Positions 24,686 through 42,760 of a stretch of 64,000 bases of DNA are shown here, in pieces. The notes under the pieces were generated by a model. That model saw nothing but the letters and a program-made list of their open reading frames with translations. It had not been told where the DNA came from and searched no databases. This DNA comes from Brevundimonas sp. (GTDB lineage: Bacteria > Pseudomonadota > Alphaproteobacteria > Caulobacterales > Caulobacteraceae). Within the stretch, counting starts at the first letter, position 1. Each line of letters opens with the position of its first letter. The translations under genes and the position numbers were made by a program. Location: the NCBI RefSeq assembly GCF_036405315.1, contig NZ_DASWXW010000016.1, positions 5,134 through 69,133 on the forward strand. Direction: 5' to 3'.

Positions 24686-25726
24686 TCAGGCGGCGACGGG
24701 CAGGCTCAGTGGTTTCTGGGTCACGACGAACAGATGCTCGACGTTGCGCAGACGCCCGACCGCCCCGACCTTTTCGCCCTTCAGATTGTGGATGCCGATG
24801 CGGGCGCCGACGTAGCGGGGTCGCGGTATCTCGACCACCTGGACATGGCCGCGCGCCGACAGCATGGCCGTCAGGTCGTCACGGCTCAGATAGCCCTCGT
24901 CGTTGAAGCTGACGATCAGGTTGGGCGCCTGAAGCCGCTCGACCACGGATTGCAGCGCCGGGCCGATGCCGGGGCGGCTGTTGAACGGGCTCTTGCGGGT
25001 CTTCACGTCCACCCGCTTGTTGGCCACGCCGTAGGTCTCGGGCTTGTCCCACAGGATCAGGCTTTCCCAGCAATGGTAGTTGGCCAGATAGGAGTGCTGG
25101 TTGTAGGGCGGGTCCAGATAGACGAGATCGGCCGCGACCTGATCGGCGATCTCGACCGCGTCGTCCTGGGTGGCCTTGCACGGCCCCGCCGCCACGCCCG
25201 GCAGCAGGTCTGGCAGTCGCAGCTCCAGCGGCTTCAGCGCGCGCGGCGCCCACTGCTTCATATAGGCCATCTGCAGCCCGGCGGTGGAATCCACCCGGTC
25301 CGCCGCCTCCATCAGGGCGACCAGAACCACGGCCTTCAGCTCCGGCTCCAGCCCCATGGCCTCGATGCGGGTGCGCATGGCGTCGATGCGGGCGCCGTTG
25401 TCGGGGTGGAAGAAGCGGGCGTCCTCGCAGAAGGCCTTGGTGAACCAGCCGGCCTCGGGCGTCAGCGTCCGCAGCTCGGCCAGAACCATCTCGGCCTGGC
25501 TCGCCCAGCGTTCGCGGTCGGCCTGGACATAGGCCGTGGCCAGGGTGTGGGCGTAGGCGTTGTGGTCGTTCGACCAGACGCGAAACCCCTGTCCCTTCAG
25601 GGCGTGACCGACGCGGGCCGAACCGGAAAACAGGTCGCACACCGTCCCGCCGTCCGGCAGGGCGGCGCGCACCGCACCCGTGACATGGCCCAGAAGCGCG
25701 CGCTTTGAGCCGATGTACTTGATCAT
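24686..25726 (-). CDS. Orphan alpha-class N6-adenine DNA methyltransferase (D12/FokI-M-like)
   Basis: IKYIGSK, DLFSGS (motif I) N-terminal, YLDPPY (motif IV) C-terminal. Confidence 0.88.
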   Translation of the reverse strand: MIKYIGSKRALLGHVTGAVRAALPDGGTVCDLFSGSARVGHALKGQGFRVWSNDHNAYAHTLATAYVQADRERWASQAEMVLAELRTLTPEAGWFTKAFCEDARFFHPDNGARIDAMRTRIEAMGLEPELKAVVLVALMEAADRVDSTAGLQMAYMKQWAPRALKPLELRLPDLLPGVAAGPCKATQDDAVEIADQVAADLVYLDPPYNQHSYLANYHCWESLILWDKPETYGVANKRVDVKTRKSPFNSRPGIGPALQSVVERLQAPNLIVSFNDEGYLSRDDLTAMLSARGHVQVVEIPRPRYVGARIGIHNLKGEKVGAVGRLRNVEHLFVVTQKPLSLPVAA

Positions 25727-29708: not shown

Positions 29709-30935
29709 TCAGATTATGAGCCGCTCGCTGGCCTGGGCGATGGCGTCGTCCTCTTCCTCGTCGCGCCAGAGATGGCCGTAGGTGTCCATCGTCATCTTCA
29801 GCGTGGCGTGTCCGACCAGCTCCTGAACCTTCTTCGGCTTGGGCTGCGGCGTTTGCGCCAGCCAGAGGCTGACGGCGACATGGCGCAGGACGTGGGGCTT
29901 GAACTCGGCAACCGGGCGGTTCTTGCCCTTGCTGTCGGGGAGCATCATCACCAGCCCGGCGGCGCGCATCAGCGGCATCCAGCAATCGCGGATGAAGTCC
30001 TCATAGCCCCACACGCCCTCGCCGGTCTTCGGGTTCGGGAACAGCCGGCCCGGCATCATTCGGCGCTCCCGGCGGCCGTCTACGTGCTGGAAGTGGCCGA
30101 CCGGCCCGCGCTTCAGGCGCCAGGCGCGCACGGCAAGGGCTGTCGTCTGCCCGATCGGCACGTCGCGTTGGCCCTTCTTCGTCTTCGGCGGGTCCAGTGT
30201 CCGGTGCGTCCGGTCTAGCCGCTCCTTCACGCGCAGCTTGCCGCCCGTCGTCCGAACAGCTGCGGCATCGTCTGCCATGCCAAGAGCTTCCGAGATCCGC
30301 AGCCCTCCGAACATGAGGATGCGCACCACGGCGCTGTCGCGTTCAGGGTTGGCGCTCTCGGTCGCGGCCTTCACCAATGCGGCGAGCTGATCCTTCGACG
30401 GCAAAGAGAAGGGCTCGCTGTCGGCCTTTTCCCCATCGCCCTCGACGGCGCAGGCCTGAGCCGGGTTCGCCAGCAGCCAGCCGCGGCGAGCTCCGAACCG
30501 GCACCACGTCACCAGAGAGCGCCTGATCTGGCGCGCGAGGTTGATGGAGCCGCCGCTCTGCACGACCTCGTCGAGGAAACCTTGAATGTCGGGAGACCGC
30601 AGGTTGGAGAGCCGGGTGCGTCCGATCTTGTGGTCGCGGATATGGGTGTCGAGGATCGACTGATAGCCGTCCGCCGTCCCGGTGCGTCGGGCGCCCGCCC
30701 TGACCAGGCCGTGGAAGTTCGCGATGTGGGCCTCGGCCAGCTGCGTCACTGTCATGGTGGACGACCCGCCGACCAGCCCGGCCGAAACGCTGTCGAGCCA
30801 CGCCTTGGCCTCACCCTTCAGGTCGAAGTTCTTGGACTGCCTGACGCCGTCAGGGCCAGCCCAGGTCGCGCGCCAGCTGACCTTGACGCTACCGTCCTGG
30901 CGCGGCCGGTTCTTGATCTTGCGGACGTTAGCCAT
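29709..30935 (-). CDS. Tyrosine integrase
   Basis: GLRISE (R), PKT (K), HVLRH, GH..KMTMDTYGH; catalytic residues intact. Confidence 0.93.
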   Translation of the reverse strand: MANVRKIKNRPRQDGSVKVSWRATWAGPDGVRQSKNFDLKGEAKAWLDSVSAGLVGGSSTMTVTQLAEAHIANFHGLVRAGARRTGTADGYQSILDTHIRDHKIGRTRLSNLRSPDIQGFLDEVVQSGGSINLARQIRRSLVTWCRFGARRGWLLANPAQACAVEGDGEKADSEPFSLPSKDQLAALVKAATESANPERDSAVVRILMFGGLRISEALGMADDAAAVRTTGGKLRVKERLDRTHRTLDPPKTKKGQRDVPIGQTTALAVRAWRLKRGPVGHFQHVDGRRERRMMPGRLFPNPKTGEGVWGYEDFIRDCWMPLMRAAGLVMMLPDSKGKNRPVAEFKPHVLRHVAVSLWLAQTPQPKPKKVQELVGHATLKMTMDTYGHLWRDEEEDDAIAQASERLII

Positions 30936-30989: not shown

Positions 30990-31220
30990 TCACGCGACCC
31001 GCACATTCGGCGCTAGGGTCTCGTCAGCCTCCAGCCATGCGTCCAGCTCGTCGGGGAAGGCATAGAGCCCGATCCCGTCCCGCTTCCGGATCGGGCAGGT
31101 CCAGCCTTTCTCCCGCGCGTGGTAGACCCAGCGCTCGGGGCGGCCGAGATAGCTGGCGATGTCGGCGGCGCCCTCCAGACGGACGCGGCGGGTCGGCGTG
31201 CTGTCGTTCGCGGCGCTCAT
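30990..31220 (-). CDS. Excisionase-like winged-HTH protein
   Basis: AADIASYLG..ERWVY, PIRK, ELDAWL; adjacent to int. Confidence 0.7.
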   Translation of the reverse strand: MSAANDSTPTRRVRLEGAADIASYLGRPERWVYHAREKGWTCPIRKRDGIGLYAFPDELDAWLEADETLAPNVRVA

Positions 31221-32880: not shown

Positions 32881-33105
32881 TCAGGCCCTCCATTTCAGGT
32901 GATTGCGGGCGTAAACGACCCAGAGCGCGACGTTCATGGGGAGCAGACCCCAAGTCGCTGACGTGACGATCCAGCCAAGCCAAAGCGCCTGATTGCCGAG
33001 GCCGATGGCCCATGCGGAGCGATGCTTGTTGCCCGCCAGCACGGTCATCCAGATCGTGATCGCGGACAGGAGCCAGGGCAGATAGGTGATGATCTCCGCT
33101 TTCAT
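32881..33105 (-). CDS. 3-TM PnuC/SemiSWEET-like membrane protein
   Basis: WLLSAITIWM..AWAIGLGNQALW..WGLLPMN..YARNHLKW. Confidence 0.55.
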   Translation of the reverse strand: MKAEIITYLPWLLSAITIWMTVLAGNKHRSAWAIGLGNQALWLGWIVTSATWGLLPMNVALWVVYARNHLKWRA

Positions 33106-34460
33106 GAGCGGGCTTCCGGCGCAGACGAACGGGCGCGGAGGGCGAGAACCTTGATCAGGTCCGAGCGAAACTCGACTGCCGGGTCGAGGCACCATTCGCC
33201 GCCATAGACCTGCTCAACCTGCGCGCCCGCCGCGACGGCGGCCACGCGAACTTCCGCATCTCGGCCTTCACGCTCCCCCGCCCCCTCGGCTGGGGCTTCA
33301 TGGCTCGCGGCAACCATGGCGGCGAATATCGCCTCTACAGCCCCAGCCCCCACAACTTCGGAGCCGTCCATGTATGTGTCGGTAAAGTCTCGAAGCGCTC
33401 CTTCTCCCGCTTCGACCATGGCTTCCGTGATAGGCGCGGCTTCCGCGTTGAGAGCGTTGAACTTGGCAAGCTCTCGGTCGTACCGTTTCCAGTGCCCCGC
33501 CGCCTGCGTCTCAGCGTCAGACCGGGCTGTCGGGTCCGCCGCGCTTCGTGCGATCCGATCTTGCCCCTCAGCGGCCTCTCTGATGGCCTCTACGCGGTTG
33601 TATTCGTCTCGCCATGCCGGTGAGGCTGGGGCTTCATGGCGGGGGGTGAGAGCTGGCGGCATGACTGATAGGTCAATCAGCTTGGTCCAGTCCGGCGTGT
33701 GGATGTTGCAGGACCATCGGCCACATGGTTTGTCCTGCTGGTCGCCGTTGACGATCGATCCGCCAAGCCCATACGCGATGTGCTGCGCCAGTTCGGACGC
33801 TCCAACTGCCTCAGCCACCCAAGGTGCGGCGATCAGGTCCAGGTCGCGCTCCATCGTGCCATGAACGCCGATGGCGTAGCCGACTTCCCGCGCCAGTTCG
33901 CGGATGCGGTCGATGTCAGGAAGGCCGGGCCATTCCCACCCGTCAGCGGGCTTCGTCAGCGCGGTCCCGCATTTCTGGCAGGGATCGACGGCGCGCGGCG
34001 AGTTACAGGTCATGCAGGCCCATTCCACCCCCTCCCGCTCTGGGGCTTCCGGGGATAGGGCGGCGAGGCCAAACTCGCGGATCAGCGCCTTTGCCAGCCG
34101 CTCTTTCGAGCCCGTTAGAGATGTGGCGTAGAAATCCTCGAACACGATCCGCTCGACGCGATTCTGCACGTCCTCCCCACCCGCCAGCGATGACGGGGCG
34201 GGGGCGGCTTGAGCCTTCGCCAGTTCGATCGACAGCCAGCGGATGCGCTCCTTGGCAGCGGTCTGCCAGACGATCAGGTCGAGGTCGTTCCGATCCGCCA
34301 TGAAGACGCGGTTCGCCAGTGCGAAGTCGGTCAGGTCGGGCCGCGAACGGGGCTGTCCGTCATACTGGCGGACGAACTCGGCCCATGCGGCGTCATCATC
34401 GCAATGGCCGGGGCCGCGAACCGGAACGACGACGCTCTGGGTGGTTGGGGTGACGGTCAT
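33102..34460 (-). CDS. Mosaic Ead/Ea22-like multi-module phage protein
   Basis: Modules joined by PEAP/HEAPA/PEAR linkers; CxxC..CxxC; GYAIGVHGT..DLD. Confidence 0.65.
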   Translation of the reverse strand: MTVTPTTQSVVVPVRGPGHCDDDAAWAEFVRQYDGQPRSRPDLTDFALANRVFMADRNDLDLIVWQTAAKERIRWLSIELAKAQAAPAPSSLAGGEDVQNRVERIVFEDFYATSLTGSKERLAKALIREFGLAALSPEAPEREGVEWACMTCNSPRAVDPCQKCGTALTKPADGWEWPGLPDIDRIRELAREVGYAIGVHGTMERDLDLIAAPWVAEAVGASELAQHIAYGLGGSIVNGDQQDKPCGRWSCNIHTPDWTKLIDLSVMPPALTPRHEAPASPAWRDEYNRVEAIREAAEGQDRIARSAADPTARSDAETQAAGHWKRYDRELAKFNALNAEAAPITEAMVEAGEGALRDFTDTYMDGSEVVGAGAVEAIFAAMVAASHEAPAEGAGEREGRDAEVRVAAVAAGAQVEQVYGGEWCLDPAVEFRSDLIKVLALRARSSAPEARS

Positions 34461-35007: not shown

Positions 35008-35480
35008 GGCTGGGACTCCTGGGGGCGGTGGTTGCGGATGATCTGCTCACCGGCGGTGATGTCGCCGGAGACGGCGTAGAGGGCCTGGCACAGTTCGAAG
35101 GGGTCGATGCCCAGGGCGTGCCAGAAGGTCAGTTCGGCGCCGGAGTGCTGCTTGGTGTGGCAGTCCCGGCAAAGGGGCGCGGTCCAGCGATCGGACGGCT
35201 TCTCAGCCTTGCCGGTGTGGCGCTTGCCGATGGTGATGTCCCCTGCCCTCAGGTGGGCGGCGTCGCAGGGGCCCGGAACCCGGCAGGCGGCGCAGGGCAG
35301 CCGGCGGATGAAGGCCAGATGCTTGTTGTCGCGCTCGCGCGGCTGGCGCTGGCCGGGGCCCTCGGGCCGGAAGGACCGGGACCGGACATGGCCCGGGGCG
35401 AAGTGCTTGCGCTTGAGCGCCCGCTTCTCCTCGCGCAACCGCGTGAGATCGGCGTTGATATGGAACAGCGACCGACTCAT
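35004..35480 (-). CDS. DUF968 / HNH-like zinc-binding protein
   Basis: HLAFIRRLPCAAC, AAH, KPSDRWTAPLCRDCH..QH. Confidence 0.78.
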   Translation of the reverse strand: MSRSLFHINADLTRLREEKRALKRKHFAPGHVRSRSFRPEGPGQRQPRERDNKHLAFIRRLPCAACRVPGPCDAAHLRAGDITIGKRHTGKAEKPSDRWTAPLCRDCHTKQHSGAELTFWHALGIDPFELCQALYAVSGDITAGEQIIRNHRPQESQP

Positions 35481-35821
35481 GCGGCGGCCCTGTCGATGGT
35501 GACCGTGCAGCTCTGCTTCAGGAGGCTGTTGCGGGTGCGCTCGCCCTCTGGGGTGAGCAGGACCGTGAAAGGCCGGGCGGGGATGCCGCGCTCAGGCCAT
35601 GCGGCGGCCTGCTGGACAGCGAGGAGATAGCCCTTGGCGATCAGGCGCAGGACCAGCTCTTCGGGGAAGGTCAGGCGGTCGTCATAGCCGCCCATGACCT
35701 CGGGCAGCAGGCGGAAAGGCACGCCTGCGAAGGCGCAGCGGTTCAACTGCTGGAGCGGCCTGACGGCGCGCAGTAGGTCGGCCTCGTCGGCCAGCAGTCG
35801 GCGGGGATGCTCGTGGATCAT
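35477..35821 (-). CDS. Phage hypothetical protein
   Basis: ATGA overlaps. Confidence 0.6.
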   Translation of the reverse strand: MIHEHPRRLLADEADLLRAVRPLQQLNRCAFAGVPFRLLPEVMGGYDDRLTFPEELVLRLIAKGYLLAVQQAAAWPERGIPARPFTVLLTPEGERTRNSLLKQSCTVTIDRAAA

Positions 35822-36351
35822 GCCGCTTCCTGACTGGCGGTTTCGACGTAGCGGGTCTGGAGCTTACGGCCGATGGGGCCGCGGTAGCGGAAGGGGCAGG
35901 CCTTGAGGCCCAGACCGTTCTCGGCCTCCAGCATGGCGAGCTGGCTGTCCGAGGTGGCGAGATCCACACGGCGCTCGAAGGCCTCGGCCCAGCCGCGCCA
36001 GTCGGTGGCGGTCAGGTCTTCGGGCAGGAACAGGCGCTCGGACCAGTCCACGTCCTCGACGTACTCGGGCAGGCTGTAGGGCCCGACCTCTTCGACGACG
36101 GCCGCCGCGACGTGTTGAACAGGCGGCGGCGCCGGGTTGGCGAGGTTCTGGTTGTCGTTCAGCCAGGTCATGGCGTCGCACAGGCGCTGTGCGAACACCC
36201 CGGCGTCGTCGACATAAGCCGACAGGTAGAGGACAGGCACCCCTGCCCCGCCCGGCTCGCGGGCGCCGTCGATGCGGACGGTCGTAGGGCCGAACAGGTC
36301 GATGTCGCGCTTCGGCGTGCCGGTGCTGACGATGGAATAGAACTCTCGCAT
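35818..36351 (-). CDS. Phage hypothetical protein
   Basis: ATG 36351 in TGATG overlap; MREFYSIV..SQEAA. Confidence 0.6.
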   Translation of the reverse strand: MREFYSIVSTGTPKRDIDLFGPTTVRIDGAREPGGAGVPVLYLSAYVDDAGVFAQRLCDAMTWLNDNQNLANPAPPPVQHVAAAVVEEVGPYSLPEYVEDVDWSERLFLPEDLTATDWRGWAEAFERRVDLATSDSQLAMLEAENGLGLKACPFRYRGPIGRKLQTRYVETASQEAA

Positions 36352-36611
36352 CAGACCAGGGCCCACCAGAAGCAGGCGGCGAGGCCGAGGCAGGTCCCCG
36401 CCTGCCAGGTGATGACGAAGGCCCTGCCGGCGCGGCCGGCGGCGGACTTGGCGGCGGCTTCGCGGCGCTCCTGACGCTGGGCCTCGGCGGCCTGACGCAG
36501 GATCAGGTTGCACTCGCGCTCAGCGCGCCGGTCGCGAACAGCTTGCCAGTTCGGATGGAAGCCGATGCCCAGCGGATGCGGGCGCATGTCGATGTAGGCG
36601 TCTTGGGCCAC
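36351..36611 (-). CDS. First gene of PL operon, C-terminal TM
   Basis: GTG start with GGGGGAG RBS; coiled coil plus TM. Confidence 0.55.
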   Translation of the reverse strand: MAQDAYIDMRPHPLGIGFHPNWQAVRDRRAERECNLILRQAAEAQRQERREAAAKSAAGRAGRAFVITWQAGTCLGLAACFWWALV

Positions 36612-36641
36612 GAACGTCTCCCCCTTTGATGTTGAGAGATG

Positions 36642-36692
36642 GTTCACATCATTTGAACTGAACGTCAAGAGATTAGTTCACACCTTTTGAAC
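36642..36692. promoter_or_regulatory. OL operators and leftward promoter
   Basis: GTTCA-N7-TGAAC at 36642-36658 and 36676-36692; TTGACG on minus strand at 36663-36668. Confidence 0.8.
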
Positions 36693-36772
36693 TAACGACC
36701 GAGACTGACGCATCGCCCCTCGACACCGCCCGATAGGTCAGCGATCAGTGTGCGTTAACTTCTGAGGGCGGG

Positions 36773-37018
36773 ATGCGAAGGGATCGGACTTACCACGTGG
36801 CGCAGTTCAAGCGTCGCCGAGGCAAACTGGCCGAAGGCGATCTGCTGACCTTCCCAGACGAGGCGGCGGCCTTTCGCCAGGGCAAAGCGATGATGGGTCG
36901 CGTAGACGGCCTGGTCTTCTTCAAGATTGAGTGCGGCGAGGAAGGGGACATCTGGAGCGCTGTCGAAACGCTGGCGACAGTAGGAGACGTCCCGCAGGAA
37001 GCCGAGGATGCCGCCTGA
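36773..37018 (+). CDS. Phage hypothetical protein
   Basis: RBS GAGGG; 81 aa. Confidence 0.65.
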   Translation: MRRDRTYHVAQFKRRRGKLAEGDLLTFPDEAAAFRQGKAMMGRVDGLVFFKIECGEEGDIWSAVETLATVGDVPQEAEDAA

Positions 37019-37055
37019 GGTTCACAGGAATTCGTTCCTATGGCAGCATGCCACT

Positions 37056-37304
37056 ATGACCGAAGCCGAAGCCAGAGAGATTGTTGAGCGCTACGAAGCG
37101 CTTTTGGCTGCTGCGCTCGGCCGTCTGCCCTACCCGCTTGAGGATGGCGATGTCCCGCGCCTTGTCATAATGCGCGATGATACCGTCGGCCTTGAGGTCA
37201 TCAGCGCCGACTCCATGGAAAACGACGACGGAAACCCTTGCGGAGGGATGCTCAGCTCGAGCTATTTCCCGGCGCGCTTCGACGCCCCTTCTTCGCGACC
37301 TTAG
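37056..37304 (+). CDS. Low-GC hypothetical protein (moron)
   Basis: MTEAEAREIV..; convergent overlap with next gene. Confidence 0.45.
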   Translation: MTEAEAREIVERYEALLAAALGRLPYPLEDGDVPRLVIMRDDTVGLEVISADSMENDDGNPCGGMLSSSYFPARFDAPSSRP

Positions 37305-37911
37305 CTTTAGTCGCACCCTGGGCGGCCTGACCCAGCCGGCGGCTTTGAAGGCGTGGCTTTCGAACATACGGCCGTGGTCGGCCGGTTGGCCGCATCGCCA
37401 TGCCAATGCCTCGGATGTAGTCGGCGATAGCGTAAAGATCACCGACGAGCGCGTCAGCGTCGTCCATCCATGGATCGCTCTCATGGCGATTGATCTTCTT
37501 GATGTCCGTCGTGAAATAATCGGGAGTGATCGTGTCGCCCCAGTCTCGAAGATAGACGTGTGCGGCAAACTTCCTCTGTTCATTCGCGCTGTCGAGCTGA
37601 TCAAGCGACCAGATGAGGGCCGAGTGGAGCGTCTTCTTGTGATCGATCGCCGCAGCTCCCGCCCGAACCGCCTTACGGCGCATGTCGTCGGACTGGAGCG
37701 CCAGCCAGAGGTTGCGGGCCACGACGGTGTCGCCGTCCACGACCATCCACTGAAACACGTCGAAGAGGCTTCCATGCGCCTCATTCCAGGCCATCAGAAG
37801 AGAACCGATAGCCATCGCGTTCTTCTTGACGATCGGGCGTAGGTGCGGCCTCGGCCTTCTGGCGGCCGTCCACGGCGGCAGCTTCACGGCCGCTGGATCA
37901 ACATTGCCCAC
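37252..37911 (-). CDS. Hypothetical protein downstream of cI, HEPN-like
   Basis: AIGSLLMAWNEAH helix and R-x4-H (RKFAAH); RBS GGAGAGG. Confidence 0.5.
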   Translation of the reverse strand: MGNVDPAAVKLPPWTAARRPRPHLRPIVKKNAMAIGSLLMAWNEAHGSLFDVFQWMVVDGDTVVARNLWLALQSDDMRRKAVRAGAAAIDHKKTLHSALIWSLDQLDSANEQRKFAAHVYLRDWGDTITPDYFTTDIKKINRHESDPWMDDADALVGDLYAIADYIRGIGMAMRPTGRPRPYVRKPRLQSRRLGQAAQGATKAKVAKKGRRSAPGNSSS

Positions 37912-37953
37912 TTACCTCTCCCCCGAGGTCATTCGACATTCACCAGTGAATGT

Positions 37954-38280
37954 TTATGCGGCGCGGCCGGTCGGCTTTTTGCTCTCAGCCGTCGCCTTTA
38001 CGACTGGCACTGCTTCTTCTTTTGCCACCTCGCGCACAGCGGCCTCTAGGCGCCGGATACGCATAGCCTCCTCTGGATGCATCAGAAGCTCGTGCGGCCG
38101 GATATTCAGCAGCTCGGAAATGGCCTGGATGTGATCACGCCGGAACGGCTGGAGGCCGTGCCACAAGCGGTTCGCCGTGTTCTTCGGATAGTCCAGCTTC
38201 GTGACAAGGTCATGCTGCTTCAGGCCCGCCGTGGCGAACCACTCGTGCAAATACCAGTCGGGGCCATCGGGCTGTTCCAT
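37954..38280 (-). CDS. CI-like XRE repressor without S24 peptidase domain
   Basis: YLHEW..GLKQHDL..ANRLW..ISELLNIRPHELL; divergent from cro; 108 aa. Confidence 0.78.
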   Translation of the reverse strand: MEQPDGPDWYLHEWFATAGLKQHDLVTKLDYPKNTANRLWHGLQPFRRDHIQAISELLNIRPHELLMHPEEAMRIRRLEAAVREVAKEEAVPVVKATAESKKPTGRAA

Positions 38281-38366
38281 GTTCACATGATGCGAACTTC
38301 TCCACAGGAAGTCGCCCGCCACCATGTGAACATGTGAGATTGACGAGAGGTTCAAACTATGTGAAC
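38281..38366. promoter_or_regulatory. OR operators and PR
   Basis: GTTCA-N7-TGAAC at 38350-38366, GTTCA-N7-CGAAC at 38281-38297, half-site 38327-38331; TTGACG at 38340. Confidence 0.8.
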
Positions 38367-38374
38367 CTCTCTGC

Positions 38375-38647
38375 ATGACATTCGCTCAGCATCGCGCAGC
38401 CCTCGGCCTCTCGCTTGAGCAGTGCGCCGTGGCCCTCGGCCTCAGCCCTTCAAGCAAGGGCTGGCTCTCCGAAATCGAGAACGGGAAGCGCGACGCCTCT
38501 CTTCGACTGGCGCTCAGGATCGAGCGCTGGAGCAAGGGCGAGGTGAAGGCGGCCTCGGTCTGCGCCGAACTTCGCGCGGCAAACGACGGAGCCGCCGACG
38601 AAGACCCCGGGGCCGAAGACCCCGAAGCCCGACAGCGAGCGGCCTGA
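38375..38647 (+). CDS. Cro-like HTH protein
   Basis: LGLSLEQCAVALG..WLSEIENGKRDASLRLALRIE. Confidence 0.8.
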   Translation: MTFAQHRAALGLSLEQCAVALGLSPSSKGWLSEIENGKRDASLRLALRIERWSKGEVKAASVCAELRAANDGAADEDPGAEDPEARQRAA

Positions 38648-38649
38648 CC

Positions 38650-38955
38650 ATGGCGGGGGGCAACATCAAGGGGACGAGGCCGACGCGGTCGGTGGTCGAC
38701 ATCCTGATCAGCACGATCCGGTCGCAGGCCGAGGCGACGCTGGCGCTGGAAAGCCTGCTGGCTGACCGAGCGGACGAGTTCACCATCGCGCGGGCGAGGC
38801 GGATCGTTCTCGACACCGCCCTGACAGCTCAGTCGACAGCCGACGGCGCCGAGCGCCTGCAACGCGCCGCGCTGGCTGGACTGCCGCCCTCCATGACCGT
38901 CGCCAACACCGACCACCCTTCACCTCCCGATGAGCCGCCACCTCGGGCGGCCTGA
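38650..38955 (+). CDS. Phage hypothetical protein
   Basis: ATG 2 nt after cro stop. Confidence 0.55.
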   Translation: MAGGNIKGTRPTRSVVDILISTIRSQAEATLALESLLADRADEFTIARARRIVLDTALTAQSTADGAERLQRAALAGLPPSMTVANTDHPSPPDEPPPRAA

Positions 38956-39015
38956 CCCTTTGACCGTATGGCCGGGCTTCCCGGTCGTCACCTTGCCCCA
39001 GACCGGAACTTCGCA

Positions 39016-39456
39016 ATGCGCGAGCTGAACCCCACCCACATCAAGGCCCTGTTCGACCAACTGGTCGCGGCGGTCGGCACCCAGGACGCAGCGGCGGTGT
39101 TCCTGGGCATCAGCCGCCAGCGCGTAGGCCAACTGATCAGCACGACCAACAACGACCTGCCCACGGTGATGCAGATCGCCAAGCTGGAGCAGGTCTGCGG
39201 TCAGTCGCTCGTCTTTGGCACGCTAGCGCGTGAAGTCGAGGGCGACCCCGCGGCGGACACCCTTGCTGCGGCCGTCCTGTCCACTGCCGCGAGTTCAGCC
39301 GCCCTGACAGCCATCCACGCCGCGAAGGCCGATGGGATCATCGATCCGCTTGAGGATGAGGCGATCAAGGACCGGGCGCGGGAGAACCTTGAGGCCGCGC
39401 AGCGCCAGTACGACGCCGCCATGAACATCCGGCCGACGCTTCGGGTGGTGGCCTGA
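39016..39456 (+). CDS. CII-like regulator
   Basis: DAAAVFLGISRQRVGQL HTH; position after cro. Confidence 0.6.
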   Translation: MRELNPTHIKALFDQLVAAVGTQDAAAVFLGISRQRVGQLISTTNNDLPTVMQIAKLEQVCGQSLVFGTLAREVEGDPAADTLAAAVLSTAASSAALTAIHAAKADGIIDPLEDEAIKDRARENLEAAQRQYDAAMNIRPTLRVVA

Positions 39457-39629
39457 TGCGAACGATCCTCGCAGGCATTGCCTTGTTGACCATCGCCCCG
39501 GCCGTGGCCGGTCGGATGGCTCGGATCTTCCTCGACTCGATGGAGGGGCCGCCGCCGCCCAGCGTCTTCGTTGCGCTGGTCCTGCTGGCGCTCGCGGCCT
39601 TCTGGCCCCGGCGAAAGGACGCCGCCTGA
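39456..39629 (+). CDS. Small 2-TM phage protein, 57 aa
   Basis: TGATG overlaps. Confidence 0.55.
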   Translation: MRTILAGIALLTIAPAVAGRMARIFLDSMEGPPPPSVFVALVLLALAAFWPRRKDAA

Positions 39630-39844
39630 TGGGCTCGTTCCTCGCACGTCTTCACGCCGCCGTTCTGGCCCTGACCGGCAAAGACAGCCTCCTGCGCGGC
39701 CAGCCCGACCCGTTCGCCACGGTTCAGGGTGTCTTCGACGCCCTCGAGCAGCGCGCGACTGAGCGCCGCGACATGACCGCTGTCGGAAAGCTGAAGGCTG
39801 CCCGCAACATCGTGACCAACGAGTGCCTGCGAGGTGCCCGATGA
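39629..39844 (+). CDS. Phage hypothetical protein
   Basis: Coupled ORF. Confidence 0.55.
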   Translation: MGSFLARLHAAVLALTGKDSLLRGQPDPFATVQGVFDALEQRATERRDMTAVGKLKAARNIVTNECLRGAR

Positions 39845-40215
39845 CAGTCGCCACCAATCGCGCCAACACCACCAACACCGGCGCCTTCGCCACGTCCCGG
39901 CGAGGCGGCCTGACGCCGCAAGAGGTCCAGATGGCCCGCCAAATGCGGTCCAAGGGTCGGGGTTGGCAGACCATCGCCAACGTCATGGGGCGTTGTCGTG
40001 AAGACCTGCAGGGCCTGGAAGCCTCCAACGACGAAGGCTTGCCGGTCGGCGGTCCGCGTCCACGCCCTTTCGCCTGGACGGAAGAGAAACTGGCCGAGTC
40101 GGAGCGCCTGTACCTGGAGGGGTTCGGCGCCAACACCATCGCGACAGCGGTCGATTGCGACCTGAGGACGGCGGAGGCTCGGTACAGCCTGCTTCGCCGG
40201 AAGGTGAAGCGATGA
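39841..40215 (+). CDS. Phage tandem-HTH protein
   Basis: GRGWQTIANVMG and GFGANTIATAVDC helices. Confidence 0.55.
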   Translation: MTVATNRANTTNTGAFATSRRGGLTPQEVQMARQMRSKGRGWQTIANVMGRCREDLQGLEASNDEGLPVGGPRPRPFAWTEEKLAESERLYLEGFGANTIATAVDCDLRTAEARYSLLRRKVKR

Positions 40216-40634
40216 TGCACATCAACCGTATCTCGGCCCGCTCGGTGATCGAGCACGTCGGGGCCAGGCATGGTCTGGACTTCGCGGTCATGGCGGGGGT
40301 CAACCGCGCCTACCGGATAGCCCGCCCCCGTCAGGTGGCGATGTATTGCGCGCACACGCTGTGCCCGCATGTCAGCTCGGCGATGATCGGCAGGCTGCTG
40401 GGCGGGCGTGACCACACGACCATTCTGCACGGCATCCGAAAGATCGAGAGCCTGCTGCCGGTCGATGACGCGATCCGCGCAGAGGTGGCCGAGGTCGTGG
40501 CTCATTTCCGGCTGAGCAGCACCGAGCCGCGCGACCTGATGCTGTCGGCGCAAATCGACGCCGCGTCGAAGCATCTGGAAGCCCTGATCAACGAAGCCCG
40601 CGTGCGGGTGGATAGGGCGAGGCTGGCGGCATGA
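40212..40634 (+). CDS. DnaA C-terminal (Bac_DnaA_C)-like DNA-binding protein
   Basis: ARPRQVAMY..IGRLLGGRDHTTILHGIRKI. Confidence 0.82.
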   Translation: MMHINRISARSVIEHVGARHGLDFAVMAGVNRAYRIARPRQVAMYCAHTLCPHVSSAMIGRLLGGRDHTTILHGIRKIESLLPVDDAIRAEVAEVVAHFRLSSTEPRDLMLSAQIDAASKHLEALINEARVRVDRARLAA

Positions 40635-41536
40635 GCGTTCAGGCCATCACATGGGCTCTGGAGCAGACGTGCGCGACGGCGACCGAGAAGGCCGTGCTGC
40701 TGGTCGTGGCCAACTACGTGGGGCCTGACGGCACGACGTTCGTGGGTCAGGAGACCATTTCGGAACAGGCGTGCTGCTCGATCAAGACGGTCGAGCGGTC
40801 GCTCGCGGCCTTCGAAAAGGCGGGCTGGATTGAGCGTGAACGTCGCCACCGGAAGGACGGTTCGCGGACGTCGGATCTGATCATCTCGAAGGGTCCGAAA
40901 CACCCTGAACGGAGGGAGAACGACCAAACCGACAATAAGTCGGGTAGGCGCGCGCCTAACAGACACCCTGTCCAAACCAAACAGACATCCTGTCCAAACC
41001 TACCCGACACAGTGTCGGGGCCCACTTCGTTTGAACCGTTAGAGGAACCGTTAGGGGAAGATGCTGTTGCTGCGCGCGAGCCGGCGAACGATCCGGTCCC
41101 GGTGGCTCAGGTCGTCGAGACGGTGGTCAGCGACTGGCCCGAGGGCGACGCCCGCCATCACGCTGAGCTGCTGAGCCGGGCCGCCAAGACGATCCGCCTC
41201 GACCCATCCCGCCAGCCCGGCCTGACCACGACGCTGGGCCGCCTGGCCGCCTGGCGCCGAGACGGGGCGAGCTGGGAACACGACGTCCTGCCCGTAGTCA
41301 CCACCATCGCCGCCAAGCCCGGCCAGCCGATCTCGTCGTGGAAGTTCTTCGACGCCCCCATCGCCCAGTCCATCGCCGACAACCGCCAAGCCCTGAACAT
41401 TCCTGAGGCCCGCCATGCAGCCCCTTCCGATGTCCGCCGCACCGATCGCCACGTCGCCGTCCTCGACAACTACGACCGCCACTGGTCCGGCGCTGAGCAG
41501 GGCGCTGAGTTGCTGGCTGCTCGACGAAACCTCTGA
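40631..41536 (+). CDS. Phage replication initiator (HTH_36, lambda O-like)
   Basis: MSVQAITWA..KAVLLVVANY..QETISEQ..KTVERSL; contains iterons. Confidence 0.8.
   Translation: MSVQAITWALEQTCATATEKAVLLVVANYVGPDGTTFVGQETISEQACCSIKTVERSLAAFEKAGWIERERRHRKDGSRTSDLIISKGPKHPERRENDQTDNKSGRRAPNRHPVQTKQTSCPNLPDTVSGPTSFEPLEEPLGEDAVAAREPANDPVPVAQVVETVVSDWPEGDARHHAELLSRAAKTIRLDPSRQPGLTTTLGRLAAWRRDGASWEHDVLPVVTTIAAKPGQPISSWKFFDAPIAQSIADNRQALNIPEARHAAPSDVRRTDRHVAVLDNYDRHWSGAEQGAELLAARRNL
40929..41054 (+). repeat. Replication origin iterons
   Basis: Four GACA-N3-(T/A)GTC units at 40931, 40962, 40984, 41006; 21-bp near-identical direct repeat; GAACCGTTAG x2. Confidence 0.75.
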
Positions 41537-42179
41537 CGCCAAGGCCATCGAGGTCATCGCCAAGAGCGACCTGCTGCGGAGCGAGGCGACGATGGCCATG
41601 CCAGCGCTGCGCGCGGCAGCCTTGCGCCCGGCGAGCCCGGACGAGATCCGCGCCATCATCGGTTCGCGGTTCCCGACCTATCCGCAGCCCAAGCGCACCG
41701 AGGGCGAGGCAGCGGCGTTCTGGGCGGACTACTTCGACGCGCTGGAGGGCCTGACCCCGGCGATGATCGAGGCGGGCATGGCTGCGCACGTGAAGGACCC
41801 CAAGGCCGAGTTCCTGCCGAAGCCCGGCCGCCTGGCCGAACTGGCGAAGACCACGCCGACGACCGGCCGCTTCACCCGGGCCTATAACCGCGCCCGCTCT
41901 GCGGTGGTCGCCAACCAGAAGGCGGCAGAGCCCAAGCCGGCGGTCGAGGAGCGCCCTTCGCCTGAGGAGGTGAAGGCCATGGTCGCCGAGACGCTGGCCG
42001 CCCTGGCCGAGACACCGACAGCGAAGGCGCTGGCGGCGCGGAAGCAGGCGATGAAGCCGACGCCGTCCGCGCCGCTGCCCGCCGGCAGCCACATGAGCGC
42101 GGAGATGCGCGCCAAGCTGGAGACCCGCAAGGCGATCCAGCCCCGATACGACCTCGACCAGTATGGAGAAGCCGCATGA
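41415..42179 (+). CDS. Replication accessory protein (P-like/helicase loader-like)
   Basis: WADYFDALEGL..EFLPKPGRL; follows the initiator. Confidence 0.55.
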   Translation: MQPLPMSAAPIATSPSSTTTTATGPALSRALSCWLLDETSDAKAIEVIAKSDLLRSEATMAMPALRAAALRPASPDEIRAIIGSRFPTYPQPKRTEGEAAAFWADYFDALEGLTPAMIEAGMAAHVKDPKAEFLPKPGRLAELAKTTPTTGRFTRAYNRARSAVVANQKAAEPKPAVEERPSPEEVKAMVAETLAALAETPTAKALAARKQAMKPTPSAPLPAGSHMSAEMRAKLETRKAIQPRYDLDQYGEAA

Positions 42180-42760
42180 GCCGGAAGAAGAAGCCTTATG
42201 ATCCGGCCGCAGCCGCACGGCATCGCCAGGAGCGCGCCGAGAGCCAAGCTGAGATAGCGCGTCTGCGGGCCCAGCCCAGCACGGCAGTCAACGTGGATAA
42301 GCGGACGGGCCGCCTGACGGGCGCCTGGCGGCTGAACTGCTTCAACACTTTGCTCACGGCCGGGGCCCGCGAACGGGAGGCGATCGACTGGCTCGAAGAG
42401 ACGGTGCGGACCGCAAACGGCGAGAACGTCGAGGAGCGCCGGCCTGATCATGTCCGCTCCAGCGGCGCAGGCGCACCGGGGCAGAACATCACCGACGCTA
42501 TGGTCGCCGCCAGCCGAGACCTTGAGATCGTGGGCCAGTCGATGCGCCCCGACCAGTGGCGTATGATCCTGGCATTGCTGCAGCCGGACGCTGATCTGAT
42601 GACGCGTTGGCGGGCGGTGGTGGAACGCTACACCGCTGAGAGCGATCCGCGCGCACAAGCTTCCCGCGTCCGAGAAACCTGCGCGCATCTGGCTTGGGTG
42701 TGGGATCGGATGCCCACCCTTCGCCGCGAGTTTCAGGAGCGGCGCGCACAAGCCGCATAG
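42176..42760 (+). CDS. Hypothetical protein in the late-activator (Q) position
   Basis: Last early gene before terminator and packaging genes. Confidence 0.55.
   Translation: MSRKKKPYDPAAAARHRQERAESQAEIARLRAQPSTAVNVDKRTGRLTGAWRLNCFNTLLTAGAREREAIDWLEETVRTANGENVEERRPDHVRSSGAGAPGQNITDAMVAASRDLEIVGQSMRPDQWRMILALLQPDADLMTRWRAVVERYTAESDPRAQASRVRETCAHLAWVWDRMPTLRREFQERRAQAA

Follow-up and report, generated by a model that had tools for sequence, protein, structure and literature searches.

An Ala-Ala tip on the early proteins of a Brevundimonas prophage and its relatives, probably a degradation tag

The early proteins of a Brevundimonas prophage end in two alanines far more often than the late proteins of such phages or the proteins of the host. 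The prophage lies in the window analyzed here, a 64,000-nucleotide (nt) stretch of contig NZ_DASWXW010000016.1 (positions 5,134 to 69,133 of the forward strand, assembly GCF_036405315.1) with a guanine-plus-cytosine (GC) content of 67%, in which host genes extend to about 29.3 kb and the prophage occupies the sequence beyond. Its genes are arranged in the order integrase, leftward early operon, immunity region with divergent cI and cro, rightward operon, HNH gene, small and large terminase genes, and structural genes. Of the 17 genes in a row from 35477 to 42760, ten encode proteins that end in Ala-Ala (AA), and across this prophage and related ones such an end is found on between a third and a half of the early proteins, those of the switch and of replication. 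This enrichment is selected and is not a by-product of composition, of gene overlaps or of gene calling. We consider it probable, with moderate confidence, that the terminal AA is a genetically encoded degradation tag that would shorten the life of the early proteins, with host ClpXP as its most likely reader.

Ala-Ala ends of the early genes

Genes in the window were called with a self-trained codon-usage gene caller, and 14 of the 88 genes counted have an AA end. The run of ten AA-ended genes had been reported in the initial annotation, and all ten open reading frames (ORFs) and their termini were verified:

35477-35821, minus strand: early ORFan of 114 amino acids (aa) in the left operon, ending ...TIDRAAA
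35818-36366, minus strand: early ORFan of 182 aa (ORF open to 36513), ending ...SQEAA
36773-37018, plus strand: ORFan of 81 aa, rightward from the operator region at 36.6-36.8 kb, ending ...EAEDAA
37954-38376, minus strand: cI-type repressor, maximal ORF of 140 aa with an HTH_26 core, ending ...KKPTGRAA
38375-38647, plus strand: Cro-type helix-turn-helix (HTH) protein of 90 aa (Pfam HTH_31/HTH_3), ending ...EARQRAA
38650-38955, plus strand: ORFan of 101 aa, ending ...DEPPPRAA
39456-39629, plus strand: hydrophobic ORF of 57 aa, the least certain gene of the set, ending ...RRKDAA
40212-40634, plus strand: protein of 140 aa with the C-terminal (domain IV) HTH of DnaA only (Pfam Bac_DnaA_C, 5.8e-18), ending ...DRARLAA
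41415-42179, plus strand: ORFan of 254 aa in the "P position", ending ...DQYGEAA
42176-42760, plus strand: ORFan of 194 aa, last before the HNH/terminase block, ending ...ERRAQAA, with a TAG stop followed by a gap

None of the listed ORFans has a Pfam or PHROG match, and for 39456-39629 neither a homologue in the fetched loci nor a Pfam or PHROG family match was found. The last two genes had been labeled "P-like" and "Q-position"; the genes and their AA ends are real, but the names reflect gene order and have no Pfam or PHROG match behind them.

Elsewhere in the window AA ends are scarce, as had been counted before: only 4 of 71 genes have one, namely a metB-like gene, dusA, a D12 methyltransferase gene and the capsid gene. 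The difference between the run and the rest of the window is significant (10/17 vs 4/71, Fisher's test, p = 3e-6). With the host family background of 4.6%, the binomial probability of the run is 6e-10, or 1.7e-5 after correction for 400 dipeptides × 71 windows. This background was determined from the surroundings of the pyruvate kinase gene in 63 Brevundimonas-like metagenome loci, which yielded 368 host gene families; 17 of these are mostly AA-ended, and the frequency of Ala is 0.20 at the last position (-1) and 0.18 at -2. Counting was done at the level of families, which avoids repeated counting of orthologues. By the same counting, families with a majority of AA ends made up 33 of the 153 early families of Brevundimonas-type prophages, compared with 1 of 60 late families (Fisher's test, p = 1e-4) and with the 17 of 368 host families (p = 2.6e-8). 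In the early proteins of the window together with those of 23 related viral contigs, Ala occupies position -1 with a frequency of 0.50 and position -2 with one of 0.45, and drops to the bulk level of 0.13 from -3; the late proteins show 0.25 at -1 and 0.15 at -2. A second sample was picked by similarity of the large terminase (TerL) alone and was blind to the early genes. Here, 164 of 910 genes (18%) upstream of the terminase and 38 of 827 (4.6%) downstream end in AA, a significant difference by the paired Wilcoxon test over 49 loci (p = 1.3e-7).

The tip is invariant in the orthologues of seven tagged proteins (35477, 35818, 36773, 38650, 41415, 42176 and cI, the last with a single orthologue). 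All seven orthologues in the 35477 family keep it at 39-89% identity, with the tails DRAAA, EPRAAA, RLDQAA, PNRAA and KARAA, as do all seven in the 35818 family, which end QVAA, QEAA, QAAA or AAAA. All three orthologues of 36773 keep it too (DEAA, AEAA, VDAA), with Ala codon pairs of four kinds and either TGA or TAG as the stop, and the four of 42176 (DEAA or RLAA) use GCC/GCG and then GCA/GCT, with TAG or TGA stops. In the 38650 family all five orthologues end PPPQAA, and in the 41415 family all ten orthologues in related prophages keep AA on tails that cannot be aligned (GEAA, EAAA, GAAA, QRAA, DRAA). When pairs from AA-fixed families were anchored at their ends, identity was 1.0 at each of the last two positions and 0.31 at -3. 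This pattern indicates that purifying selection acts on the last two residues only, and at the amino-acid level.

Comparison across lineages indicates that the AA tip is an add-on of the phage or host lineage, not a property of the protein family. Database-wide, AA is found in only 21 of 150 representatives of the 41415 family below 50% identity. In contig L027, similarity to the O-like protein described below is limited to the N-terminal domain, yet 9 of the 13 early genes are AA-ended, including that of a DnaB-type helicase; the close relatives of this helicase end in AA (14/19) or VA (5/19), and among the other 101 matches of the search, most of them annotated as replicative DNA helicases, nine have an AA end. 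Runs of AA-ended early genes are also found in contigs of lower GC or with unrelated early genes (L206, L209, L027, L012, L014 and L017), so the trait extends beyond Brevundimonas. It is not general to phages of Caulobacterales, as only 6 of 73 genes in the non-structural half of Caulobacter phage Sansa (66% GC) have AA ends.

The homologues of the two regulators carry several tips. The 72 cI homologues comprise 35 with AA (mostly G-R/K-A-A), about 25 with R/K-T-G-T-x-G and others with RRKAG; among 111 Cro homologues, 68 end in AA, on tails of varied length and sequence, and others in VQ or LQ. The TGTxG and VQ/LQ tips sit on the same kind of variable tail as AA. The cI tip was also tried as a predictor of AA-rich neighbors and was rejected because the separation was not clean: AA ends were 3/26 in L132 (TGTEG), 6/25 in each of L137 and L138 (TGTxG) and 6/24 in L139 (GRAA).

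The following genes of the prophage lack the AA end:

29709-30935, minus strand: integrase, ending ...ASERLII
30990-31220: putative xis, ending RVA
33102-34460, minus strand: early gene of 452 aa with only a weak PHROG match of unknown function
37252-37887, minus strand: early gene of 211 aa between cI and 36773-37018, with no family match
38968-39456, plus strand: CII-like activator of 162 aa (PHROG 101), ending ...LRVVA
40631-41536, plus strand: O-like replication initiator of 301 aa (Pfam HTH_36), ending ...AARRNL

The VA ends of the CII-like protein (RVVA) and of the putative Xis (RVA) had been noted before and were verified. Close relatives of the O-like protein end RRNL, RRAL or RRAY, and the distant ones in L012, L014 and L017 end in AA. 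The 3′ end of the O-like gene overlaps the 5′ end of 41415-42179 out of frame over about 120 nt (41415-41536), and the same overlap is present, by independent gene calls, in the prophage of Brevundimonas sp. UYEF29 (L135, 6437-6558). In named genomes, relatives of the O-like gene occur in Brevundimonas sp. (78% identity), B. diminuta (64%) and B. sanguinis. Searches of 50,697 GenBank phages (tblastn and blastn) found no close cultured relative and no DNA match to the 7.9-kb early region, and the sole O-like match among them was a partial one of 27% in phage Sansa. Public reads with this sequence came from soil-metagenome DNA runs only, with no RNA run among them.

On the host side of the window, the gene of a D12-class N6-adenine DNA methyltransferase (24686-25726, minus strand) adjoins that of pyruvate kinase, and its product ends ...PVAA. 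AA was found in all 48 orthologues in Brevundimonas-like metagenome loci, and in 12 of 12 members of a 185-aa host family. Both may be substrates of host proteolysis.

Degradation and the alternatives to it

In the mechanism we propose, a tagged early protein would consist of a folded domain, a short variable flexible tail and an AA-COOH tip. The ClpX unfoldase of the host would recognize the exposed AA-COOH and hand the protein to ClpP; ClpAP, Lon and FtsH also take ssrA-like ends, and any of them may have a share in the degradation. The repressor, Cro, the replication proteins and many ORFans would then have short half-lives, and early-protein levels would track ongoing synthesis and protease capacity. 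The early program would erase itself when transcription stops, and leaky early products would be cleared in lysogens. Proteolysis as the effect of the tag, the identity of the protease and the physiological purpose are all inferred here.

C-terminal AA as a determinant of ClpXP degradation, which the initial annotation had taken as established, is indeed documented, for Caulobacter NstA and CtrA, where changing AA to DD stabilizes the protein (PMC4470285), and in an E. coli screen (PMC10862746). In that screen, an unbiased one, 91% of the top 100 tags had an AA end and consistent enrichment was confined to ssrA-like tags that depend on ClpXP (PMC10862746). In addition, bacterial proteomes avoid hydrophobic last residues, and this avoidance correlates with degradation (PMC7246954). 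Structural models built with AlphaFold2 (AF2) from family alignments gave a core with a predicted local distance difference test (pLDDT) score of 82-91 for cI and 94-97 for Cro; the last ~19 residues of cI (pLDDT 41-57) and the last 20 of Cro (pLDDT 53-56) are modeled as low-confidence coil. The tails of cI are of low complexity, about 20 aa long, rich in Ala, Pro, Glu and Lys, and alignable only at the tip. For these two of the ten tagged proteins, the AA is predicted to lie on an accessible, unstructured tail.

Several points weigh against degradation by ClpXP. In E. coli AA is necessary but not sufficient; 39% of 5-mers ending in AA are weak, and a tag is impaired when Gly, Ser, Pro, His or a short polar residue precedes it (PMC10862746). 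Favorable for a degron of this kind are non-polar residues ahead of AA, Leu at -3 and a net charge that is neutral or positive. The ten tails of the run are RAAA, QEAA, EDAA, GRAA, QRAA, PRAA, KDAA, RLAA, GEAA and AQAA; several are acidic, and the residue at -3 (A, E, D, R, R, R, D, L, E and Q, respectively) is Leu in only one, although the preferences of E. coli may not apply to the ClpX of Caulobacterales. Weighted by family, the commonest residues at -3 are A, E, R and V. Many of the tags may then be weak or tunable, depend on adaptors, or be read by another protease. The 12 residues before AA do not differ in hydrophobicity from those of untagged proteins (0.24 vs 0.25); disorder-promoting residues there are slightly more frequent (0.60 vs 0.51), and Gly, Pro, Ser or Thr at -3 amounts to about 14% vs 22% expected, a weak trend, obtained by rough arithmetic, toward the depletion seen in the E. 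coli screen. In addition, a prophage repressor under constant turnover looks costly, and the cI and Cro homologues of other phages bear other conserved tips (TGTxG; VQ/LQ). Finally, in two of the families the end varies among AA, VA, SA and others: the orthologues of the DnaA C-terminal protein, where AA is not fixed, end LAA, PAA, GAA, LAT, VSA, VSV or GFA, and the ends of the CII-like orthologues alternate among VVA, AVA, EVA and GAA.

A bolder form of the same proposal was considered, in which the early proteome, collectively tagged for host ClpXP, would act as a self-erasing pulse. Dozens of AA-ended proteins made in a burst would compete for ClpXP and transiently stabilize CtrA-like substrates, which would tie the decision and the timing of the phage to the cell cycle and stress state of the host. 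The tips would form a genome-wide "degron dialect" adopted or dropped by host lineage, an idea that comes from the alternative conserved tips of the relatives. We think this extended form unlikely.

The same alternative tips mean that AA may serve a function other than recognition by ClpX. It could be a docking peptide, which would recruit ClpX as a chaperone without ClpP, as for the MuA transpososome, or another host or phage reader of AA-COOH, so that the proteins would be co-regulated by binding and not by turnover. An invariant tip on a variable flexible tail fits any short linear motif, TGTxG and VQ/LQ on cI and Cro suggest interchangeable docking motifs, and replication proteins are among those tagged. 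Nevertheless, two residues give little binding specificity, and dozens of functionally unrelated tagged proteins suit a generic fate, namely removal, better than specific complexes. Since, moreover, the only well-documented readers of AA-COOH are AAA+ proteases (PMC10862746, PMC4470285), we regard docking as improbable.

A different reader is also conceivable, the tip being a degron taken mainly by ClpAP, Lon or FtsH, proteases that tolerate non-polar C-termini, and not by ClpXP. Four of the five ATP-dependent proteases of E. coli can recognize the ssrA tag (PMC10862746), upstream residues that look weak for ClpX may fit another enzyme better, and the product of the tagged ORF 39456-39629 looks membrane-embedded, which would suit FtsH. 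The consistent enrichment of only ClpXP-dependent tags in the E. coli screen (PMC10862746) and the fact that the AA-ended regulators studied in Caulobacter are ClpXP substrates (PMC4470285) speak against it, and we give this possibility a low rank as well.

Much less credible is a signal in the mRNA, by which GCN-GCN-stop would aid termination, re-initiation (ATGA coupling) or the spacing of the ribosome-binding site in the packed early operons, the amino acids being a by-product. Overlaps are indeed present for 142 of 299 genes in early operons, and the terminal Ala codon of early genes is GCA in 59%, forced by the ATGA overlaps. However, this explanation is largely refuted by tests of spacing and codons. 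In Brevundimonas-type prophages the enrichment outlives the removal of overlaps, a control that the initial annotation had called for: the AA share of early genes is 38% with an overlap, 54% at a gap of 16-60 nt and 35% at a gap of more than 60 nt. Late genes have AA shares of 3-10% in each spacing class, and no enrichment is seen among overlapping late genes (3/54) or in Rhodobacterales prophages of the same architecture. Only four of the ten AA-ended genes of the run have an ATGA stop-start overlap, and the operon-terminal genes cI, 36773 (whose stop is overlapped by no gene) and 42176 keep AA. The codon at -2 is free of the overlap constraint and yet equally enriched; the choice of Ala codon at -2, and at -1 in genes lacking the ATGA overlap, matches that at internal Ala positions; and TGA, TAG and TAA all occur after AA.

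Controls for composition and gene calling gave similar results. Among wrong-frame ORFs of at least 60 codons in the same early-region DNA, 25 of 1228 (2.0%) end in AA. Relatives of the Rhodobacterales type, with 59-66% GC, have AA ends in 15 of 241 genes, relatives of the Pseudovibrio type in 1 of 108, and the GC-rich L168 and L170 have no AA-ended runs; conversely, two phages of lower GC show the pattern, L206 (55% GC) with 6/17 and L209 (50% GC) with 4/20. As GC-matched controls are negative and some phages of 50-55% GC are positive, GC is not the cause. Independent database gene calls gave the same termini of the cI and Cro homologues and, in the UYEF29 prophage, 12 AA ends in about 22 early genes. 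Chance, GC-driven composition or a gene-calling artefact, to which the high GC, the rank of Ala as the commonest residue (13-14%) and a host AA background already above the ~2% expected from composition might point, is refuted by these controls, by the binomial probability in the window and by replication in dozens of related and independently sampled phage genomes, and deserves practically no credence.

Repressor, Cro and the immunity region

The initial annotation had gone further and proposed that the lysis-lysogeny decision is wired to ClpXP capacity rather than to RecA. For this we found no support. With both antagonists, cI and Cro, as well as replication proteins and ORFans tagged, the net effect of the tag on the decision cannot be read from sequence, and the model of a switch run by ClpXP instead of RecA is speculation. 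A whole early protein set made short-lived would be a plainer and more economical reading than a ClpXP-wired decision.

The observations on which the proposal had been built were confirmed. The repressor has no S24 autocleavage domain, as Pfam gives HTH_26 only and the protein is 108-140 aa long; its likely start is at 38280 (108 aa) or 38325 (123 aa), and the architecture is the same across 72 homologues. LexA boxes (GTTC-N7-GTTC) are not above chance (48 vs 43 expected from shuffles), and both exact sites are intragenic. A repeat search (family D1) found operator-like sequences in two divergent promoter regions:

36642-36659 and 36676-36693: two copies of an 18-nt operator-like palindrome (GTTCACAnnnTnTGAACT), left divergent promoter region
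38281-38298 and 38350-38367: 18-nt operator-like copies (GTTCACAnnnTnTGAACT) between cI and cro

The four GTTCACAnnnTnTGAACT sites, which flank the immunity region, are likely operators of cI and Cro; the one at 38281-38298 lies directly next to 38280, the probable start of cI. The left region also contains, upstream of 36773-37018, the sequence GTTGAGAGATGGTTC (36631-36645), which matches the alphaproteobacterial LexA box GTTC-N7-GTTC at all but one position and runs into the first operator-like repeat; this may be an SOS input or a coincidence. In the UYEF29 relative, a KilA-N domain protein (L135, 10427-11278), ending ...DNAA, adjoins cI and is a possible antirepressor. An indirect SOS route through an antirepressor may exist. 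An N6_N4 methyltransferase of the same phage ends ...LGAA.

Comparison with known systems and significance

Host proteases set the fate of CII, O, N and Xis of phage lambda. The closest likeness to the present case is mycobacteriophage BPs, where, according to PMC4557955 and PMC9635641, ssrA-like tags on Rep (viral form) and Int set the lysogeny frequency, and the gp33 A135E change stabilizes the tagged protein and alters that frequency. The same papers describe, after Broussard et al. (2013), the integration-dependent immunity of BPs, Brujita and Charlie. Both cases have switch proteins of a temperate phage with ssrA-like tags at the extreme C-terminus, and BPs is the precedent for a decision tied to host proteolysis. 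In BPs, however, attP lies inside rep and integration cuts the tag off Rep, and Int is tagged, whereas here the integrase is untagged, with the end ...RLII, a distance of 7 kb separates cI from int, and cI in the prophage still ends GRAA; the prophage is therefore not of the BPs type. Moreover, only Rep and Int are tagged in BPs, in contrast to 10/17 early genes here, including those of Cro, replication proteins and ORFans, and the BPs hosts are Actinobacteria and the present ones Alphaproteobacteria.

CtrA and NstA of Caulobacter share with the phage proteins the host order, Caulobacterales, and the same two terminal residues; according to PMC4470285 and the work cited there, AA to DD stabilizes these proteins, and depletion of ClpX or ClpP raises their levels. 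Each of them, however, is a lone host regulator, with adaptors and the cell cycle governing when it is degraded, whereas a whole block of phage genes is concerned here. The ssrA tag of transfer-messenger RNA (tmRNA), the ClpX C-motif 1, likewise is a flexible tail ending in AA-COOH in which the terminal di-Ala is critical (PMC10862746). In contrast to the tails described here, which are encoded, variable and often charged, it is added co-translationally and is conserved and mostly non-polar upstream (..YALAA in gammaproteobacteria). Because of their variable and often charged upstream sequence, the present tails are probably weaker than the ssrA tag.

A further likeness is with the fragments of LexA and of phage CI, HTH domains that are removed by ClpX(P). 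The LexA fragment exposes a new ...VAA C-terminus. ClpXP degrades this N-terminal fragment once RecA has stimulated autocleavage (Neher et al. 2003, as cited in PMC10055390), and a CI fragment of an S. aureus phage is removed by ClpX (PMC10584840). The cI protein described here, with its HTH followed by a tail and AA, resembles such a fragment made directly. In LexA and CI the tag is unmasked by cleavage upon DNA damage, whereas this cI has no S24 domain or cleavage step, and its tag, if it works, would be exposed constitutively.

Tags resembling ssrA on single phage regulators are known, and what would be new is their extension to a whole early module in alphaproteobacterial prophages. No earlier description of mass AA-tagging of phage early proteins was found in the literature searched, the coverage of which was incomplete, so that this is absence of evidence only. 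The new element would be a phage lineage in which one minimal C-terminal tag, strictly selected, marks between a third and a half of the early proteins and is kept from the late ones. If the tag works as a degron, protein lifetime would be a genome-wide, module-level design feature of a temperate phage, and dozens of natural tails of graded strength would become available for studying ClpX specificity in Alphaproteobacteria. In that case, the early and late genes of prophages in these hosts that lack annotation could also be told apart by a simple sequence mark. The coupling of host proteolytic capacity to the phage decision becomes directly testable with AA-to-DD alleles.

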